DNA of 64,000 nucleotides. Source: an uncultured Candidatus Peribacteria bacterium. GTDB taxonomy: Bacteria > Patescibacteriota > Gracilibacteria > Peribacterales > Peribacteraceae. The DNA is taken from positions 23,196-87,195 of the forward strand of contig CAZDKL010000001.1 of assembly GCA_964506185.1 (NCBI GenBank), given 5' to 3'. Under the pieces are notes generated by a model that saw only the letters and a list, made by a program, of their open reading frames with translations, did not search any database and had not been told where the DNA came from. Of this stretch, positions 2,817-29,555 are shown piece after piece (the stretch's first letter is position 1; the number at the start of each line of letters is the position of its first letter). Position numbers and translations under genes: made by a program.

Positions 2817-3239
2817 CTACTTCTCGAGGACTTCGCAGCTCCAAAGGAGTCGACAGAGCAACCCCCTCAGATTTGCAGCTCGCGCTTCCACGGGGTCGTC
2901 CGTCAGTCGTTCGACGACTGCGTAGTACTTCGCGGACTTGCGCAGATGCATTTGCTCGTTTTCGGAATCCGTGGACACGAGATGTCGATGAGCTTTCGCC
3001 AATTTCCTAGCGGCGAATAAGTTTGTCTCACCAACTTCCTCGACCTCGTCCAACGTTTCCCGCATGAGCTTGGCGCTCACTTCTTGCCCCTTAGCCATCT
3101 TCTCGGTGCAGGGGCGAAACGAGTCCCAAAACTCCGCCTTCTCGACGGCAGACTTTGCCGCCTTCTGAAGGCTAGCATCGTCGGCGACCACGTTTCCGCA
3201 GATCCCGACACACAACACCACCAACATCCAATAACGCAT
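2817..3239 (-). CDS. hypothetical secreted helical protein, GC-rich cassette 2 (141 aa)
   Basis: The start was moved to ATG 3239, preceded by AAGGAA. The N-terminus MRYWMLVVLCVGICGNVVA-DD looks like a Sec signal peptide. The rest is charged and helical. I recognise no family. Confidence 0.6.
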   Translation of the reverse strand: MRYWMLVVLCVGICGNVVADDASLQKAAKSAVEKAEFWDSFRPCTEKMAKGQEVSAKLMRETLDEVEEVGETNLFAARKLAKAHRHLVSTDSENEQMHLRKSAKYYAVVERLTDDPVEARAANLRGLLCRLLWSCEVLEK

Positions 3240-3493: not shown

Positions 3494-5209
3494 TTATGAC
3501 CGCCAATACCCCTTATACCCCTCCGGCACTGTGTAAGCTGAGGCGCAAGAGGGCTTATTGGTCATAAATTCGGATTTAAGCATATCCATCAGTTCTTTAT
3601 CTGATGTGAAATCCTCCCATGTTGGATCCATAAACAGAAATTCTGATTTCTTGAGGTTATCAAATGTTTGCGTACGGAAATGCTCTGACTGATTGGATCC
3701 AAACGAGCGGAATGCGGACCATCCCATTTGTAGTGGAAGATGATCTGGAAGAAGGAAGCCTGCTCCGATCCCGATGTAATTCTCGAAACCACACTTATCC
3801 ATCATCGCATCAAGCTCAGCAGTCTTTTGCATACTTGCCACGTAGTTTTCGTTTTCTAGTCTGACCTTTGCACTCCTCTCCTCCCAATTTATCTTTGGCA
3901 GAATGAATGGAATCAAAGCAATTAGTCCTATGAGTACACCCGAGGCAATTTGCATCAGAGAATTTTTTATTTTTGGAAGTGTAATCAGAAACAACAGGAA
4001 TACTGCTGCACAAAGAGGTGCGATATTCGTTCGTTGATAAATGTTGAAGTGCGAAGCGCCAGCTGCAAGCGAGACAGGATAGAATGCAAGTACTGATACG
4101 ACAACGTAGCTGAGTACTTTCTTATTTTTCCTGAATACTTGAACCAAACTGACTGCAAATACCAAGCATGCAACCGCACTAAGCACGCACATAACGTCTT
4201 TGTAATTCGAAATCGTATGTTCAAGCTCAGTTTTACTTAGAATGTAAGCAATGTAACTCACATTGAATGCAATCATTCCGCTGACTGAACACACAAGGAC
4301 CACAATCAGCTCTTTCCACTTAGTAAGTTCTGACTTAAAGACTGGAACTGATGCAAGTAATGCTCCAAATGCAATTCCAAACACAGGAAGCATAAAGAGT
4401 AAGCTCATATCCAACATCAAAATCCATCCATGAAGTCCCCGCATCCAAAGCGAGCCCAATTGATTTGTTTGAATTCTGACGGAGAAAGCGTCAGGCAAAT
4501 AAATATTAAGATAAGGTCCAAGTAATCCCAATATGAGCATAATCAAGGATCCTAAAATGAATGCTATTACGAATGGAATTACGAATGATCTTACAAAGAA
4601 CTTGAATGTAGGACTTAAAATCATGCTAACTGCAATTAGCGGGAACAAAAACTGCTCGCGCATTCCCATGGAAGCTGCGATGAAGACCGATGCTAAGATT
4701 ATTCTAAGAGGAGTCATCTTCTTTGTATCCCACGCAACAACCAAAACATATGCAATCGCAAACGGCACTCCGAATGACTCAGCTTGCAAGCCTACTATTC
4801 TCTCGACTGAGTATATCGAGATTGCTCCACCGAATATCAAAGCCGTACATACTCCAACCGACTTAAGAAATGCTGACGATTCTTTCAGATTTCTGACTGC
4901 AAACCACGCAAATGATATTGGTATGCACACAAAGCAGAGCAGCTTGAATATAAGCAGAGGTATCTCGTTATTGGCGATCAGAAGAGAGATTGCATTTAGG
5001 AATAGGAGCCCCGGAGGCTTCATTTCGAAGAATTCGCTGTACAGATCTTTGCCGTTTATAAGCCCCTTTGCGACCGTGAAGAACGTCCCATCATCCCCCA
5101 TTAGCCTCGTCTGACCCTCCAGAATGAGCATCGAAGCCAAAATACATAAGGTTTTGACTGCAGCTAAAGCCAAAATTACCGTTGCCAGCCAAATCAACTT
5201 TTTCTTCAT
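3494..5209 (-). CDS. GT-C-type membrane glycosyltransferase (ArnT/PMT_2-like)
   Basis: Polytopic protein of about 570 aa. The first loop, DGTFFTVAKGLINGKDLYSEFFEMKPPGL, is typical of the family. The start was set at MKKKLIW (ATG 5209); the ORF extends to 5254. Confidence 0.75.
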   Translation of the reverse strand: MKKKLIWLATVILALAAVKTLCILASMLILEGQTRLMGDDGTFFTVAKGLINGKDLYSEFFEMKPPGLLFLNAISLLIANNEIPLLIFKLLCFVCIPISFAWFAVRNLKESSAFLKSVGVCTALIFGGAISIYSVERIVGLQAESFGVPFAIAYVLVVAWDTKKMTPLRIILASVFIAASMGMREQFLFPLIAVSMILSPTFKFFVRSFVIPFVIAFILGSLIMLILGLLGPYLNIYLPDAFSVRIQTNQLGSLWMRGLHGWILMLDMSLLFMLPVFGIAFGALLASVPVFKSELTKWKELIVVLVCSVSGMIAFNVSYIAYILSKTELEHTISNYKDVMCVLSAVACLVFAVSLVQVFRKNKKVLSYVVVSVLAFYPVSLAAGASHFNIYQRTNIAPLCAAVFLLFLITLPKIKNSLMQIASGVLIGLIALIPFILPKINWEERSAKVRLENENYVASMQKTAELDAMMDKCGFENYIGIGAGFLLPDHLPLQMGWSAFRSFGSNQSEHFRTQTFDNLKKSEFLFMDPTWEDFTSDKELMDMLKSEFMTNKPSCASAYTVPEGYKGYWRS

Positions 5210-5253
5210 AAACTGATGATAGAAAAGGTTTACAAAGAGTACAATGCCATCCA

Positions 5254-5676
5254 ATGTCTGCAGTCCACTTGCACGCCAAGCAATTTTCCAAATTCTCCGT
5301 TACAGGCACAGTTACAACGATAGTCGACCTGGGATCCCTGACGTTTTTTATGGAGATATTGAAAATTCCACTCAGGCCTTCCGTAGGCTCTGCGGCACTG
5401 ATTGGATTCACCGTGGCATTCTTTGTGAATAAATACTGGAGCTTCAAAAATGGTGAGAAACAATTATTTAAGCAATATTCCCGCTTTATTGCGGTCTATG
5501 CTGTCAGCTTTTTTATTGGAGTCGGTTTTACGATATTAATTACAGAATCATTTGAGCTTCAGTATATAATCTCTCGTCTATTGGCAATTATACTCTGCGG
5601 ACTTTGGAATTATTTATGGCTTCACCATGTAGTATTCGACAACTCACCACAAACTCCTCTTGAAGATTCTCTTTAG
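5254..5676 (+). CDS. GtrA-family membrane protein
   Basis: 140 aa with 4 TM segments. KFSVTGTVTTIVDLG and FFVNKYWSF signatures are present. Confidence 0.8.
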   Translation: MSAVHLHAKQFSKFSVTGTVTTIVDLGSLTFFMEILKIPLRPSVGSAALIGFTVAFFVNKYWSFKNGEKQLFKQYSRFIAVYAVSFFIGVGFTILITESFELQYIISRLLAIILCGLWNYLWLHHVVFDNSPQTPLEDSL

Positions 5677-6387
5677 AATTAAACTTCTGTATTCACCAAG
5701 AGTTTTGAACAGTTTCATTTTTGATTTACCTTTCTTAAGACCGTAATCATAAACAAGAGGAGCCTCAGAATTTTTATTGGAGAAATCTCTGACTTTTAAT
5801 AAGACTTCCAAGTTCGCTGCGAATGATTTTTGCGTGATAAATTGATCCTGATACTTCTCGAATGCTTTCTTAATGATTCGCGCTGAATATCCTCTGTAAA
5901 AAATTGTGTAGTCCGTAACTCCTTTTGTGCGAAAGAAGATTTTGAGCACTGTATTTACAACCCCGCTTCCAAAAGTTCTTATGAGCGGGAAGTTTTTGTA
6001 CTTTCCGCCTTTGATGTATCTGGATGCAACGACAATATCTGACTCGTTGGCAATCATATCAATCATTTGCGGCATTACACTCAAATCAGAAGTACAATCT
6101 CCTTCAATTATGAATATTACATCGTCATCTGACGCGAGCTCGCTCGCTTTTTTTAGTCCGTCATAAAAAGTTTTTGGAACTCCTGCATTTTGTTCATGAA
6201 CAACGATCTCCATATCTATTTTGTTTAGATACTCCTTTGCAATCTCAAGCGTTCTATCACTGCTTCCATCGTCGACCAAAACAATTTTTTTGCTTACGGG
6301 GATATTAAGAGCAAGTAAATCATCAAGAAGCCTGGCTATGTTCCCCTCCTCATTGAACGCCGGAATGATTATGTAAGCAGTTGACAC
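5644..6387 (-). CDS. family 2 glycosyltransferase (polyprenyl-phosphate sugar synthase-like)
   Basis: IIIPAFNEEGNI..VLVDDGSSDRT..IFIIEGD matches GT2 DxD architecture. Confidence 0.85.
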   Translation of the reverse strand: MSTAYIIIPAFNEEGNIARLLDDLLALNIPVSKKIVLVDDGSSDRTLEIAKEYLNKIDMEIVVHEQNAGVPKTFYDGLKKASELASDDDVIFIIEGDCTSDLSVMPQMIDMIANESDIVVASRYIKGGKYKNFPLIRTFGSGVVNTVLKIFFRTKGVTDYTIFYRGYSARIIKKAFEKYQDQFITQKSFAANLEVLLKVRDFSNKNSEAPLVYDYGLKKGKSKMKLFKTLGEYRSLILKRIFKRSLW

Positions 6388-6431
6388 ATGCTGATAATAT
6401 CAACAATTTAAGAAATTCATATACATAAACG

Positions 6432-6464
6432 AAGCCCGAGCGGTATGAAAACCAACTCGGGCTT
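6432..6464 (-). terminator. hairpin terminator of cassette 3
   Basis: AAGCCCGAG..CTCGGGCTT stem. On the minus strand it is followed by the T-rich cgtttatgtatatg. Confidence 0.5.
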
Positions 6465-6504
6465 GTGTGGGGCCGCCATGATAGTGGCAGCGCTTCCCAC
6501 TGCA

Positions 6505-6930
6505 TTAACCGACGGCGCACGCCTCGCGGGTTTGGGACATCGCAGCGACGTCCTCAACGAAACCCCGCGAAAAGCGGAATGTGCCGTCCATGTTGTCCAG
6601 GAAGAAACCGAGATCGACGAGATCGCTAACCATCCTTGCGGAGGATTCCCCGATGTCATCGGGGGCGAAATCGGCCCATCGTCCTGCTTCTTGCGCGTAT
6701 CGCAACGCGTTTTCGGCGCAGCCCTCGAGACCAGAGGCCCCAAAGGTGCCGGTCGAGTTGAAGTGAACGATATCCCCAGGCTGGATTGCGTGGTCGTCAT
6801 CGGCGTTTTGCTGGTTCAAGGTGAACCGCAGAGTTTTTCCGTGCTGATAAACGCCCCACGTACCGGCCCTTCTTCCGCCACGATTCTCGATCAATACTTC
6901 GATTTCCGTCCAGTCGGCCATGTTGAACAT
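6505..6930 (-). CDS. hypothetical protein, GC-rich cassette 3 (141 aa)
   Basis: The start was set at ATG 6930, preceded by TAGGAG plus a 7-nt spacer. Line 6541-6600 has 36/60 GC. I recognise no family. The antisense 169-aa ORF is judged a shadow. Confidence 0.6.
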   Translation of the reverse strand: MFNMADWTEIEVLIENRGGRRAGTWGVYQHGKTLRFTLNQQNADDDHAIQPGDIVHFNSTGTFGASGLEGCAENALRYAQEAGRWADFAPDDIGESSARMVSDLVDLGFFLDNMDGTFRFSRGFVEDVAAMSQTREACAVG

Positions 6931-6965
6931 GCCAAAGCTCCTAAAAAAGATTGAACAACTATGCA

Positions 6966-7025
6966 GGTAGGACCTCTGTGTTCCACCCGCACCAAAACTA
7001 ACTCCAGAAAACACAGAGGACTACC
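6966..7025 (-). promoter_or_regulatory. nested leader hairpin of cassette 3
   Basis: Inner stem CCTCTGTGTT (6973-6982) pairs with AACACAGAGG (7010-7019). Outer stem is GGTAG/CTACC. The architecture resembles 29305-29355. Confidence 0.4.
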
Positions 7026-7054
7026 TACTTTGATGTAAAAGAACACTCTATAAT

Positions 7055-7082
7055 ATTATATCCTATATTGGATATTAGTCAA
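7055..7082 (-). promoter_or_regulatory. putative promoter of cassette 3
   Basis: Minus strand TTGACT (7082-7077), 16 nt, TATAAT (7060-7055). It begins 20 nt downstream of the tRNA-Thr 3' end. Confidence 0.45.
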
Positions 7083-7101
7083 ATAGCTTATATAAGCCAA
7101 A

Positions 7102-7176
7102 TGGAGCCGCCCACGAGATTTGAACTCGTGACCCCCTCCTTACCATGGAGGTGCTCTACCACTGAGCTAGGGCGGC
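7102..7176 (-). tRNA. tRNA-Thr (anticodon GGU), CCA encoded
   Basis: GCCGCCC-TA-GCTC AGTGGTA GAGC-A-CCTCC AUGGUAA GGAGG-GGGTC-ACGAG TTCAAAT CTCGT-GGGCGGC-T-CCA folds as a canonical cloverleaf. Confidence 0.9.
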
Positions 7177-7239
7177 GTAGTTTACAAGCTATAATGAAGT
7201 GAACAGATTCTCAACCGAGCTAGTCTTTTTTATTACGCC

Positions 7240-7309
7240 ATCGCAGGCGATGGCTGGGCACTGCCCGCCCACCGAAGTCGCGAAGCGCGAAGGTGGGAGC
7301 TAGGGCGGC
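7240..7309. repeat. GC-rich hairpin block plus 13-nt duplicate of the tRNA-Thr 5' end
   Basis: Three hairpins: GCCATCGC/GCGATGGC, GGGCA/TGCCC, and CGCCCACCG..GCGAAGGTGGG. gagctagggcggc at 7297-7309 is identical to 7164-7176. Confidence 0.6.
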
Positions 7310-7377
7310 ATGCTCAAAAGCTCGTGAATACTACAATACCAATATATTTATCTCAATCGATGCAATTGTTTTCTTTA

Positions 7378-7716
7378 TTAAATCAAACACCCCATCTCCT
7401 TTGGTTCAACCGGATCTGGATTTAATTGCTCTGCCGGAATCAAATCTGCGACACACCTTTTGACCTCAGCCATTGCAGTTTGCAAATCAGCATTCTCCCA
7501 TCTATCAAAAAGGTTAGCTATTAGATCGCCAGATGGAGTGCTAAAAACCCCAATCAAGGCTTGTACTGTATCAATTCCATATTCAGCGAGTATTTTCGCA
7601 ACATCGCGATGGACTGCCAGTACCACCTCGCCGTCATCCTGTATCTCCGGCTGAAAACTACCCGAGCGCAATTCTTCTGCACCTTCTTTTGCCACAATTT
7701 TGATTGCATTTGTCAT
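7378..7716 (-). CDS. hypothetical protein (112 aa)
   Basis: ORF with host-like composition. The first ATG is at 7716 (the ORF track starts at a TTG at 7725). I recognise no motif. Confidence 0.5.
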   Translation of the reverse strand: MTNAIKIVAKEGAEELRSGSFQPEIQDDGEVVLAVHRDVAKILAEYGIDTVQALIGVFSTPSGDLIANLFDRWENADLQTAMAEVKRCVADLIPAEQLNPDPVEPKEMGCLI

Positions 7717-7742
7717 ATGCAACAACTATACAGCATATTTGA

Positions 7743-8717
7743 ATGTTGTCAATGACCAGACTTCTATATAATCCCCTTATGCTAAGGATTTTTGCTGTCT
7801 CCATCCTATTTTCCCAAACCTGTTTTGCGGCTTCGATAATATCAAATCCTGTTCCCGCTGACCTAAATCAGCTCAATCAAAGCATATCCGAAGAAGCCTC
7901 GCACGCATCAGTCGACTTGTCCGGCAAAGGAGCGGATCTGAAGATCAACTACTCTTCACCATCTCCCCTCTCAATCTACATTCTATTTTTGAATGACGAT
8001 GGATCGGTAAATCCGCGTGAAATAGTTTCCGCTGAACTACCGAAGGGAACGGCAGTTGAATCTCTGATACCCCTTTCACAAACCAGAGGCTGGTCTTGGG
8101 GCGAAAGGAAATACAAACTGCATTTTTTAACTGATAAAGGAGTCGTCCCGGCAATCAGCAAAGTTGAAATCAGCGGAAGCCCGTCGTTAATCGATGGCAT
8201 CAAACAATTTTTCGCACTTGAACCTTTCACTCCATCTTCTTATCACAGATTAAGCGGATACAAACTCTTTGGAATCTCGTTCACTCTTGCGCTGACTCTA
8301 ATCTTGATCATTCTTTTATTCTTCAGAAGAAAAAAGCATGTAATGAACGTAATTATCATTCTGATACTTCTATTTAACGTCCGTTTTTCAATGGACCTGC
8401 TCAGATACACAAAAATCAACTTAAGTTCCGACACATATTCAACCGCAGGCTCCGCATATCAGATTGCTGACTACTTTAAATCGAATGAAATTAATAGCAT
8501 CCAACTTTGTTCTGACGGAAACACTTACTTCCCGACTATTTTAAAGTACGCAGGTTATCCGTTATCAGTTAACTCCGAAGCTGATCATGTTTTAATTCGC
8601 AACGCATTCAAGTGGTCTTTCGAAAATGGAAATCTGACGTGCGGCGATCTGACAGCGCCAGCAACTCAAATCAGTAAGTTCCCCGATGGTTCAATTCTCT
8701 TTAAATTATCAAAATGA
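7743..8717 (+). CDS. hypothetical membrane-anchored/secreted protein
   Basis: Signal-like N-terminus (LRIFAVSILFSQTCFAAS) and internal TM segments. Its stop overlaps the next start (ATGA at 8714). Confidence 0.65.
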   Translation: MLSMTRLLYNPLMLRIFAVSILFSQTCFAASIISNPVPADLNQLNQSISEEASHASVDLSGKGADLKINYSSPSPLSIYILFLNDDGSVNPREIVSAELPKGTAVESLIPLSQTRGWSWGERKYKLHFLTDKGVVPAISKVEISGSPSLIDGIKQFFALEPFTPSSYHRLSGYKLFGISFTLALTLILIILLFFRRKKHVMNVIIILILLFNVRFSMDLLRYTKINLSSDTYSTAGSAYQIADYFKSNEINSIQLCSDGNTYFPTILKYAGYPLSVNSEADHVLIRNAFKWSFENGNLTCGDLTAPATQISKFPDGSILFKLSK

Positions 8718-28280: not shown

Positions 28281-28302
28281 ACGGCAGCTTGGAGGCTGCC
28301 GT
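28281..28302 (-). terminator. hairpin terminator of cassette 4 (possibly bidirectional)
   Basis: ACGGCAGC-ttggag-GCTGCCGT. On the minus strand it is followed by ctttgttatacaag. Confidence 0.5.
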
Positions 28303-28341
28303 CCTGTTCGCCCTGATTTTCGGAATGGGCGGGACTTTCCG

Positions 28342-29166
28342 TCAGTTGAGTTTGATGAACGGATCGCTTTGTCCGGGGAACAGTCGGTTGCCGGAAGCGG
28401 CGACCGAGTTCTTCGGCTTCACTCCCCATGCAACAAGCTGCTTGTGCGTCGCGTAGCGGAAGTAGTAGAGTGAATAGGCGTAAGGTCGCGGTTGGAAATC
28501 GGAATCCGCAAGTGGATTATCGAAATCTTCACCGACACCAGTGCCAATGCCTTTTCCACCTCGCGACTGCGACTTGACCGGCTCTGGGTGTTCGCCGCGG
28601 AAAACCGCGACAACGATGGTTCCCAAAGCTGTTGGGTCGTCTTTCTGATCGACTGCAAACGAGTTGGCTTCCTTGGTAACGACAAAACGTTTGCCACCTT
28701 GGTAACCGGTTTGCCAGCCCTTGCAGGCGTAAGCACGATTGCCGATCACAACGCCCATCGGCCATGTCTCTTCTTGGTTGATGCCCACTGCCGGAATCTG
28801 CTTACCCGTGAGGGTGCACCGACCGTCTACAGCCACACCAACACAGACCTCTTTCGCGACGACATGAGACCACATGTTGATACCGTAGACGTCGCCCTTC
28901 TTGAGTTCCACGTAGCGGTAGTAGCGATCCGGATTCTTGCCTTCGCCCTTGATGAACGAGGGAATCGTACCGGACGGCGGCGCGTAGATCGCCGCAGGGC
29001 CTTCGTTGTCGACTTCGATACTGAGCGTAACGCAGTCGCCTCGGATTGTCTGGCTGAAATTCGCCGCAGCCGCCTGGGATCCAGCCCCCGGATGGAACAT
29101 GACCACCAGAGCGGTGGCAACCAACGCGAGAGCACCAACAGAACCAAAAACGAGTTTGCGCGTCAT
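28342..29166 (-). CDS. hypothetical secreted/anchored protein, GC-rich cassette 4 (274 aa)
   Basis: The start was set at ATG 29166, preceded by CAGGAGG plus 7 nt. The N-terminus MTRKLVFGSVGALALVATALVVMF..AAAA is signal-like. Lines 28501-28740 have 50-63% GC. I recognise no family. Several overlapping ORFs are shadows. Confidence 0.65.
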   Translation of the reverse strand: MTRKLVFGSVGALALVATALVVMFHPGAGSQAAAANFSQTIRGDCVTLSIEVDNEGPAAIYAPPSGTIPSFIKGEGKNPDRYYRYVELKKGDVYGINMWSHVVAKEVCVGVAVDGRCTLTGKQIPAVGINQEETWPMGVVIGNRAYACKGWQTGYQGGKRFVVTKEANSFAVDQKDDPTALGTIVVAVFRGEHPEPVKSQSRGGKGIGTGVGEDFDNPLADSDFQPRPYAYSLYYFRYATHKQLVAWGVKPKNSVAASGNRLFPGQSDPFIKLN

Positions 29167-29304
29167 AATGTGTCCTCCTGGACAAAGTGTTACAGCAGCA
29201 TCCAGACGCATAGGAATACTGCCCTTGACGAAAATGTACCCGTACATCGGGTCGGCATAAGAGAAACTGCTTAGAATTTCCCACATGCCAACCCGACATT
29301 CCTA

Positions 29305-29355
29305 GTAGGCAGGGCATCTGTGTTCGCGATGCGAACACAGGTAAATACCTACCAG
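29305..29355 (-). promoter_or_regulatory. nested leader hairpin of cassette 4
   Basis: Perfect inner stem CTGTGTTCGC (29318-29327) with GCGAACACAG (29331-29340). Outer stem is GTAGG/CCTAC. Same design as 6966-7025. Confidence 0.4.
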
Positions 29356-29385
29356 GTCCTATGCTGCAAATGAGCTATCTATATT

Positions 29386-29414
29386 ATAATAGACATAATT
29401 TAGAATATTGTCAA
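29386..29414 (-). promoter_or_regulatory. putative promoter of cassette 4
   Basis: Minus strand TTGACA (29414-29409), 17 nt, TATTAT (29391-29386). It begins 51 nt downstream of the tRNA-Ser 3' end. Confidence 0.45.
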
Positions 29415-29464
29415 TTCGCCGATATTGGCTTTAACTAAAGGAAAACGACCATTTCAAACCAAAC

Positions 29465-29555
29465 TGGCGGAGAGAGGGGGATTCGAACCCCCGAGACCCT
29501 TGCGGGCCTACCCGCACTCCAAGCGGGCGCACTAGACCAACTATGCGATCTCTCC
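29465..29555 (-). tRNA. tRNA-Ser (anticodon GGA), long variable arm, CCA encoded
   Basis: GGAGAGA..CCCGC UUGGAGU GCGGG, variable arm GGCCCGCAAGGGTC, GGGGG TTCGAAT CCCCC, TCTCTCC-G-CCA. Confidence 0.9.

Follow-up and report, generated by a model that had tools for sequence, protein, structure and literature searches.

A conserved promoter and hairpin leader precedes a GC-rich single-gene cassette beside tRNA-Thr in an uncultured Peribacteria genome

Directly downstream of the tRNA-Thr(GGU) gene of an uncultured Candidatus Peribacteria bacterium (assembly GCA_964506185.1, contig CAZDKL010000001.1) lies a short unit rich in guanine plus cytosine (GC), which consists of a promoter, a long bulged hairpin, a single open reading frame (ORF) of 141 amino acids (aa) and further hairpins behind it. 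We refer to the unit as the cassette and to the region from its promoter to its first hairpin as the leader. It is read on the minus strand of a stretch of 64,000 nucleotides (nt), hereafter called the window, and the genes around it are tRNA-Thr, GT2, GtrA and SufS/SufU, the next gene beyond the cassette being that of a GT2 glycosyltransferase (5644-6387). The genome of the window (G000; 1.355 Mb in 51 contigs, GC content 0.428) was compared with same-genus genomes (G001 to G007) and with wider samples of the family, order and class. Here we describe the leader, which recurs before unrelated small genes, and weigh how the cassette came to stand beside a tRNA gene. Coordinates are collected in Table 1.

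Table 1. Features of the tRNA-Thr cassette and of its sister unit, in window coordinates (GC3, GC content at third codon positions)
Feature	Position	Strand	Support or remark
tRNA-Thr(GGU), upstream neighbour of the cassette	7102-7176	-	ARAGORN and Rfam
19-nt spacer with the 12-nt palindrome GCTTATATAAGC at 7097-7086	7083-7101	-	read from the sequence
Sigma-70-type promoter, TTGACT-16-TATAAT	7055-7082	-	11 of 12 consensus positions; kept in the leader alignment
Conserved 5' box, GTGTTCTTTTACA	7034-7046	-	leader alignment; family consensus G-Y-TCTTT-N-N-CA
Leader hairpin, long and bulged	6963-7028	-	fold z -2.87; 2 of 200 shuffles fold as well
Shine-Dalgarno sequence AGGAG, 7 nt 5' of the ATG	6938-6942	-	read from the sequence
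141-aa ORF, ATG start	6505-6930	-	GC 0.58, GC3 0.68
Two 3' hairpins (6500-6466 and 6464-6432), then a weak T-run	6432-6500	-	fold z -4.69 (3' hairpin region)
AT-rich 3' flank of the cassette	6388-6431	-	up to the glycosyltransferase GTG start (6387); missing with the cassette in G005 and G006
Sister cassette after tRNA-Ser(GGA)	28281-29464	-	same part order as the Thr locus
tRNA-Ser(GGA)	29465-29555	-	ARAGORN and Rfam

The original prediction, which was made from the letters of the window, had set out a tRNA, a 19-nt gap, a promoter, a leader hairpin, an ORF and a 3' hairpin in this order on the minus strand, and all of these parts were found where it had placed them. Two needed adjustment: the leader hairpin is slightly longer than the 7025-6966 first proposed, and the proposed terminator is indeed a hairpin, with a second one before it, but the T-run behind it is weak (CGTTTATG) and a simple terminator scan did not call it. 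The 3' hairpins, which differ between cassettes, presumably act as the terminator. The promoter is the best of five promoter-like sites in 6300-7400, where shuffled sequences would lead us to expect 1.6, and the 5' box probably lies at, or just past, the start of transcription. In the leader hairpin the lower stem is formed by GTAGGTAG/CTACCTGC and the upper stem by CCTCTGTG.../...CACAGAGG, with an asymmetric internal loop of 1 nt on the 5' side and 2 nt (TC) on the 3' side.

The window holds a sister cassette after tRNA-Ser(GGA), where the same layout had been noted. Besides the order of its parts, it shares with the Thr cassette the hairpin core CTGTGTT...AACACAG, which matches twice in the window and in none of 100 shuffles. 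Its parts comprise a TTGACA-17-TATTAT promoter, a homologous leader at 29296-29391 (C1:52491-52586 in contig coordinates), a 274-aa ORF (29166-28343) and a terminator hairpin. Downstream of tRNA-Ser(GGA), neither this cassette nor the leader (as covariance model R2, below) was present in the five same-genus genomes examined, and G002 and G001 retain the gene that in G000 lies past the Ser cassette. A third copy of the leader in G000 lies on contig C10, before a lipoprotein-like ORF and with no adjoining tRNA. By eye, the Ser and C10 proteins start with hydrophobic, signal-like segments, in the case of the 274-aa protein a signal peptide; none was seen by eye in the 141-aa protein.

A few observations were made in passing at these loci. 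On C10 (43563-45801) two GC-rich cassettes stand in tandem, the upstream one reaching a GC content of 0.69 and lacking the leader, the downstream one carrying it before the lipoprotein-like ORF of 208 aa. In G007 and G002 the end of tRNA-Ser(GGA) leads directly into a palindromic hairpin of 25 nt, behind which the final 8 nt of the tRNA (CTCCGCCA) occur once more. On the other side of tRNA-Thr, a stretch on the minus strand (7232-7305) holds, 117 nt upstream of the tRNA, a 13-nt exact copy of its 5' end (GCCGCCCTAGCTC) and after that GC-rich hairpins; the stretch is 91% identical in G006 and 80% in G004, and was called by neither ARAGORN nor Rfam. An analogous 12-nt copy of the tRNA-Thr 5' end occurs in G003, and another genome (G158) has a leader cassette with a tRNA-Ile behind it, upstream of which lies a 24-nt copy (40 nt with context).

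In the leader alignment, G002 and G003 share everything between the -10 box and the hairpin, both included. A covariance model (R1) built from four sequences, namely the two window cassettes and those of G002 and G003, detected the third copy in G000 and matches in 11 of 151 genomes of the family. A second model (R2), built from 16 sequences, returned the same three copies in G000, together with matches in 39 of 151 genomes and 22 of 69 genera in a sample of the order and family. In a class-wide sample, R2 matched 18 of 151 genomes, and 14 (of 135) belong to eight other families. Genomes with a match carry between one and five copies. The conserved parts of the leader are the -10 box, the G-Y-TCTTT-N-N-CA box about 7 nt later, a lower stem with the consensus GCAGGTAG/CTRCCTGC and an upper stem around CTGYG/CRCAG; the 1 x 2-nt internal loop with TC on its 3' side is constant, while the terminal loop ranges from 3 to about 60 nt.

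Several lines of evidence indicate that this conservation reflects a structure. Standard pairs make up 91.4% of the cells in the leader alignment, compared with 31-50% when the 3' partner is slid by one to three columns, and 20 of the 22 base pairs show changes on both sides, values that were reached by none of 500 shuffles. The hairpin also folds from each leader sequence singly. As the frequent G-U pairs fit the sense strand only, and the antisense match scores far lower (22 bits, against 77-80 bits for the sense strand), the element is placed on the sense strand. Weighing against the strength of this evidence, covariation was counted on a 16-sequence alignment that had been fitted to the model and so leans towards the structure, and the E-values of the covariance models are rough. 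With Rfam 15, the window and 15 further leader loci yielded tRNAs only, all other rows in 6400-7200 being far below the thresholds. A literature search, covering titles and the beginnings of abstracts, gave no description of the leader or of such cassettes in Patescibacteria, which does not prove their absence. The promoter, the 5' box and the hairpin are thus one conserved class-wide leader that is undescribed in Rfam 15 or in the literature searched.

At each of the 35 leader loci there is one ORF, of 50-314 aa, which starts 2-80 nt past the model match (11 nt before the end of the match at the weakest locus), and a GC-rich hairpin follows the ORF at most of the first 16 loci, for which the downstream sequence was read. 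The 35 ORFs fall into 17 similarity groups (one of 13 members, two of three, two of two and 12 singletons). Members of the largest family are about 111-149 aa long; the two groups of three are the family of the 141-aa protein and a membrane-anchored or lipoprotein-like family. None of the 20 leader ORFs scanned reached the Pfam threshold, and none of the five scanned with PADLOC was matched. A covarying structure, a fixed position between promoter and start codon in 35 loci and unrelated downstream genes are generic marks of cis-regulatory leaders, and all were found here. Judged by these features of its sequence, the leader is likely to be a functional RNA element that acts in cis on the gene behind it.

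How such an element might work can be sketched as a model. The near-consensus sigma-70 promoter would start the mRNA at the conserved 5' box, which would be followed in the transcript by the 20-bp bulged hairpin, conserved in stem sequence as well as in pairing. The pyrimidine-rich box would bridge the foot of the hairpin by pairing with the Shine-Dalgarno sequence and would close the leader, and in this closed form the leader may limit the access of ribosomes and/or protect the 5' end of the mRNA. A conserved trans-acting factor would use the hairpin as its handle and open or cut the leader; it would be either an RNase III-type nuclease or a protein that binds double-stranded RNA, and a cut in the stem would detach the 5' box and free the Shine-Dalgarno sequence. 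A sequence-specific factor is argued for by the comparison of G000 with G003, in which 36 of 38 stem positions are the same by eye, so that only two differ, while the proteins are only 38% identical.

For the cassette of the 141-aa protein, fold prediction pairs the 5' box with the Shine-Dalgarno region. In predicted ensembles the same pairing exceeds two expected pairs in 14 of 34 folded leaders, and variants of the two partners match, UCCUU occurring with AAGGA and UCUUU with AAAGGAG. Against this, the pairing is absent or weak in 20 of the 34 leaders, the result is one of folding prediction only, and any pyrimidine run can pair with a purine-rich Shine-Dalgarno sequence. We therefore put forward the pairing as a means of control only tentatively. 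Known leaders in which the ribosome-binding site is masked until cleavage or a factor exposes it include the RNase III-processed leaders of phage lambda N and of the T7 early genes, and the fourU and ROSE thermometers. The present leader resembles them in the pyrimidine stretch predicted to pair with the Shine-Dalgarno sequence and in its stem, which at about 20 bp and with its asymmetric internal loop is of the size of an RNase III substrate. It differs in that it has no Rfam match and in that its stem sequence is conserved across a bacterial class. That a processing nuclease acts on the leader, which is suggested by this analogy, seems doubtful.

The history of the cassette is best approached through the closest relatives. 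SufS identity to G000 is 82% in G005 and G006, 73% in G003, 66% in G007, 63% in G002, 62% in G001 and 59% in G004 (the SufS matches in G005, G006 and G007 each contain one in-frame stop, TAG or TAA). A comparison of the tRNA-Thr locus across related genomes for empty sites, as had been suggested, found one in both G005 and G006, where the end of tRNA-Thr runs directly into the start codon of the GT2 orthologue (...GGCGGCTCCATTTTATGCCCA...). The junction reads ...GGCGGCTCCATTTTATG, followed by the orthologous GT2 gene, and stands at a contig start in G005 and in the interior of a long contig in G006. Compared with these genomes, G000 has about 711 bp of extra DNA (6388-7098, edges accurate to a few nt), the left edge of which, at about 7098, falls inside the spacer after tRNA-Thr. 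Neither the 141-aa protein nor the leader was found in the whole of G005 or G006 as searched, G006 being 81% complete.

Homologues of the 141-aa protein were found in two of 40 other relatives searched. In G003 a 38%-identical homologue stands directly after tRNA-Thr(GGU), with the same promoter and hairpin, and SufU/SufS rather than the glycosyltransferase block lie beyond it. The AT-rich flank of the G000 cassette resembles the 3' flank of this G003 cassette by eye (TTTATGTA...ATTGTT...ATTAT). In G002 a 45%-identical homologue with the same leader occupies a different locus, behind an unrelated large gene and 2.9 kb from the nearest tRNA, while the tRNA-Thr(GGU) site is compact (SufU, tRNA, rpsF region). 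The protein is thus closer to that of G002 than to that of G003, although G003 is the closer genome by SufS. The tRNA-Thr(GGU) sequence itself is 100% identical across G001, G002, G004 and G005. In G001 (C23:88700-91400), two modules lie behind the tRNA, each with a partial copy of the tRNA 3' end at its boundary (an exact one of 31 nt, and a core of about 20 nt); of these modules one encodes a 524-aa membrane protein without a Pfam match and the other a RelB antitoxin with a ParE/YafQ-type toxin; these modules have no integrase. The flank of tRNA-Thr is a variable hot spot within the genus.

The cassette stands out in base composition, as had been claimed for it. In windows of 200 nt, GC content is 0.545-0.595 over the 141-aa ORF and 0.33-0.45 in the flanks. 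Its GC3 lies above the 99th percentile (0.671) of the 639 G000 ORFs of at least 250 aa that served as reference (mean 0.391, standard deviation 0.069). The three leader cassettes of G000 have a GC content of 0.54-0.58 and a GC3 of 0.61-0.68. Among other genera of the family, SufS loci have a mean GC content of 0.535 (range 0.41-0.62) and the SufS gene is at 0.50 or above in 22 of 29 loci, the sample being the best-scoring 29 loci among 58 other genomes with a match; stretches of 12 and 20 kb around leader copies in two genomes (G164 and G140) are uniformly at about 0.57. G000, at 0.43, stands out as AT-rich, and the composition of its three leader cassettes is the one typical of the family majority. 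Where the leader occurs in AT-rich genomes of other families, the ORFs that follow it are AT-rich themselves (GC 0.31 and 0.36), so that the leader does not impose a high GC content.

High GC is found elsewhere in G000 too. Windows of at least 300 nt with a GC content of at least 0.54 number 89 and are scattered over the genome, a crude ORF caller gave about 59 GC-rich ORFs of at least 80 aa, and a 5-kb block on C3 (51371-56631) reaches a GC content of 0.70. The window itself has two further GC-rich single-gene units, at 1737-2051 on the plus strand (104 aa) and at 2817-3239 on the minus strand (140 aa), both without a Pfam match; they have promoter-like sites and hairpin terminators of their own and no R1 or R2 leader, the 5' region of the second forms a long hairpin of another kind, and a DUF3841 gene of normal GC content stands between them.

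Taken together, the family-majority GC content, protein identities that conflict with genome distances, the other locus in G002 and an undecayed GC3 favour import, and it is likely that the cassette was brought in from a GC-richer relative within the Patescibacteria, possibly repeatedly at one spot. Three points weigh against this. All genomes compared are metagenome bins; a donor was not identified, the most similar proteins (73% and 44%) coming from metagenome contigs or from a same-genus genome; and, given the homologue at the same site in G003, two gains and one ancient gain with a later loss in the G005/G006 lineage are equally parsimonious. This last point leads to the strongest alternative, in which the 141-aa gene is an old resident that descended vertically and was deleted in the G005/G006 branch, with its GC content and divergence owed to selection. 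The cassettes of G003 and G000 do share their location, their hairpins are nearly identical and their short 3' flanks are alike, and the fusion of tRNA and start codon in G005 and G006, which leaves no ribosome-binding site, looks like the scar of a deletion. Yet at a protein identity of only 38% (62% divergence) synonymous sites should have drifted to the host GC3 of 0.39, whereas they remain at 0.68 in G000 and 0.61 in G003; the G003 gene is also GC-rich at its site (0.54, against 0.41-0.44 in its flanks), so that the homologue of native composition that would have spoken for residence is there as a homologue but not in its composition. The conflict with genome distances, the G002 copy at another locus and the AT-rich ORFs behind the leader in AT-rich genomes also speak against residence, which we regard as unlikely.

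Insertion at the 3' end of tRNA-Thr by a tyrosine integrase acting in trans or since lost, with its attachment site in the tRNA, is a further explanation, and it was the classical one to which the original prediction appealed. A same-strand tRNA precedes each of the two window cassettes, and the repeat-bounded modules of G001 show that site-specific integration occurs at this very tRNA in the genus. More widely, a tRNA gene is the direct neighbour in 10 of the 35 leader loci, an enrichment over rough null rates of 2-10%, the ten loci not being independent and counting as about seven separate situations. However, the tRNA stands upstream on the same strand in only four of the ten (including G194, in which a second cassette lies between); it is upstream and divergent in one and downstream in five, where it begins 150-260 nt past the stop codon. 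The G002 homologue is not beside a tRNA at all. The direct repeat of the tRNA 3' end that was looked for at the distal boundary is missing from the window, where neither tRNA-Thr nor tRNA-Ser has its 3' end copied beyond chance level: the 27-nt tRNA end matches only itself at up to three mismatches, and a short-word BLAST with the last 50 nt gave only chance words of 8-13 nt. The extra DNA begins about 3 nt past the CCA and not within the tRNA, and the 711-bp insert, as had been anticipated, has a single ORF and no integrase, with no family match at a curated threshold. Nor are GC-rich islands enriched downstream of tRNAs genome-wide (3 of 46, against 6.4% of random segments, p 0.57). As it has neither a tRNA-end repeat nor an integrase, the cassette is not a classical tRNA-integrated island, and an integrase-mediated origin of the kind outlined above is improbable. 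The foreign-DNA part of the original prediction was therefore largely right and classical tRNA integration is not supported.

It is very improbable that the hairpin is a DNA recombination site, similar to attC or to the ends of IS200/IS605 elements, by which an unrecognised recombinase moves the units as mobile cassettes: its conserved stem, variable loop, constant asymmetric bulge and unrelated ORFs, the patchy occurrence and the tandem cassettes of G194 and of C10 in G000 would fit, but the one mapped indel spans promoter to terminator with its edges at the tRNA end and the next gene start and not in the hairpin, conservation covers the promoter and 5' box as in a transcript leader, the attC core motifs GTTRRRY and RYYYAAC are missing from the arms, and each unit has one such hairpin and none at its 3' end.

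On balance, then, we read the locus as a self-contained, monocistronic cassette for an accessory gene, acquired horizontally and placed beside tRNA-Thr without a site-specific integrase. It invites comparison with several known systems. Like tRNA-linked islands of the tyrosine-integrase type, it adjoins a tRNA, is atypical in composition and differs in presence between close relatives, and in G001 this tRNA is a proven site of repeat-bounded insertion; unlike them, it is a 0.7-kb unit of one gene that lacks an integrase, a duplicated tRNA end and a break in the tRNA, and related cassettes also occur upstream of tRNAs or away from them. Phage morons are independent promoter-gene-terminator units of deviant composition, and the cassette is likewise a single gene with its own promoter and terminator, set between unrelated genes and different in GC content. 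In contrast to morons, it lies outside a prophage, between a tRNA and the GT2 gene, and has no phage match, and the cassettes share a conserved leader where morons do not. With integron cassettes it has in common that unrelated small ORFs, each with one conserved, imperfect and bulged hairpin, differ from the host in GC content. Here, though, the hairpin stands 5' of the ORF behind a private promoter, attC cores are lacking and the indel edges lie outside the hairpin. The leader cassettes also form no array, being dispersed singly or in pairs (G194 and C10 have tandem cassettes), and no integron integrase turned up nearby, with no search having been aimed at intI.

A bolder reading would see in these cassettes a dispersed 'plug-and-play' system of gene capture and expression in Patescibacteria. 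The promoter and leader would be a universal adapter for small accessory genes, the cassettes would be exchanged between genera and settle beside tRNA genes by recombination free of integrases and repeats, and the hairpin would be the handle of an RNA- or DNA-binding factor that controls or moves the set. We regard this as a long shot.

The 141-aa product had been described as an orphan, and the profile and structure searches run on it yielded winged-helix-like fold matches at middling Z. Neither it nor the 274-aa protein of the Ser cassette was matched at a curated threshold in Pfam, PHROG, NCBIfam or PADLOC; for the 141-aa ORF, NCBIfam and PADLOC returned nothing, and the Pfam and PHROG rows were weak and below threshold (the only PHROG row had an E-value of 0.029). 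A search of 1.84 billion representatives gave 11 matches, nine of which are small proteins of 137-228 aa that make up its family; the other two, of 2776 and 1240 aa (P0011 and P0013), were rejected as spurious, being repeat proteins (DUF4347/cadherin-like and MucBP, respectively) that match in many weak stretches. A word-index search turned up close clusters at three levels of identity (100%, 77% and 73%). Two metagenome-contig loci (L095 and L096), with 38-39% identity over 51-69 residues in GC-rich DNA and without a leader, were taken as chance matches. No score in the ESM Atlas was above 0.81, the PDB sequence profile gave only an antibody row (E 0.25), and tblastn against 50,697 phage records gave no match.

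An AlphaFold model from a 10-sequence alignment (mean predicted local distance difference test score, pLDDT, 88.2; predicted template modelling score, pTM, 0.82) has three strands in residues 7-36, helices at 66-82, 90-93 and 98-106, a two-stranded wing at 110-121 and a helix at 122-140. With VIA, residues ~58-141 matched 1stz at Z 7.7 (root-mean-square deviation 2.5 over 75 residues) and MotA (1bja) at Z 7.0, along with many MarR and IclR entries at Z 5.5-6.6 (about 65-80 residues aligned). The best BFVD row was a phage helix-turn-helix protein (E 0.028). The predicted C-terminal half thus has the helix-helix-helix-wing order of winged-helix domains of the MarR, IclR, HrcA-N and MotA type (Z 5.5-7.7), from which the protein differs in having no match at the sequence level and an unmatched three-stranded N-terminal part. 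Since Foldseek on the PDB returned no row below an E-value of 0.4 (at least 0.44), and VIA Z values under 8 are common for unrelated models, both of which count against a firm assignment, we describe the model as an N-terminal beta part with a winged-helix-like C-terminal part and do not call it a MarR family member. We take the product for a small cytoplasmic protein that, given this predicted domain, probably binds nucleic acid or another protein.

Traces of the locus were also found in sequencing libraries. The runs that contain the complete stretch are labelled as marine or seawater metagenomes, and two DNA runs, which are possibly the source of the window, cover all of 5000-8000. In two metatranscriptomic libraries, contigs match 6506-6929 (424 nt, word depth 17.3) and 6498-6787 (290 nt, depth 5.0). 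As evidence of expression these contigs have their limits: they give neither ends nor strand and do not prove transcription, and within 5000-8000 they include neither the leader nor the tRNA nor the neighbouring genes, a lack of cover that itself proves nothing. Both limits of the first contig (run X7) coincide to within 1 nt with the start and stop codons of the ORF.

The genomes of Patescibacteria are tiny, and in them few regulators are known and many genes lack an assigned function. The cassettes described here combine units like genomic islets or morons with a probable cis-regulatory leader that is patchy across a class of Patescibacteria. Standing before fast-evolving, lineage-specific small proteins, the leader marks out a regulon-like set that lends itself to study as a whole, and its hairpin is a concrete handle for fishing out the factor that binds it. 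The covariance model flags real, probably expressed, small genes that profile databases miss. The presence and absence of the cassette and its contrast in GC content suggest a traffic of single-gene expression units between genera of these episymbionts, and their persistence beside tRNA genes without the usual signature of an integrase, which bears on how accessory functions are gained in reduced genomes.

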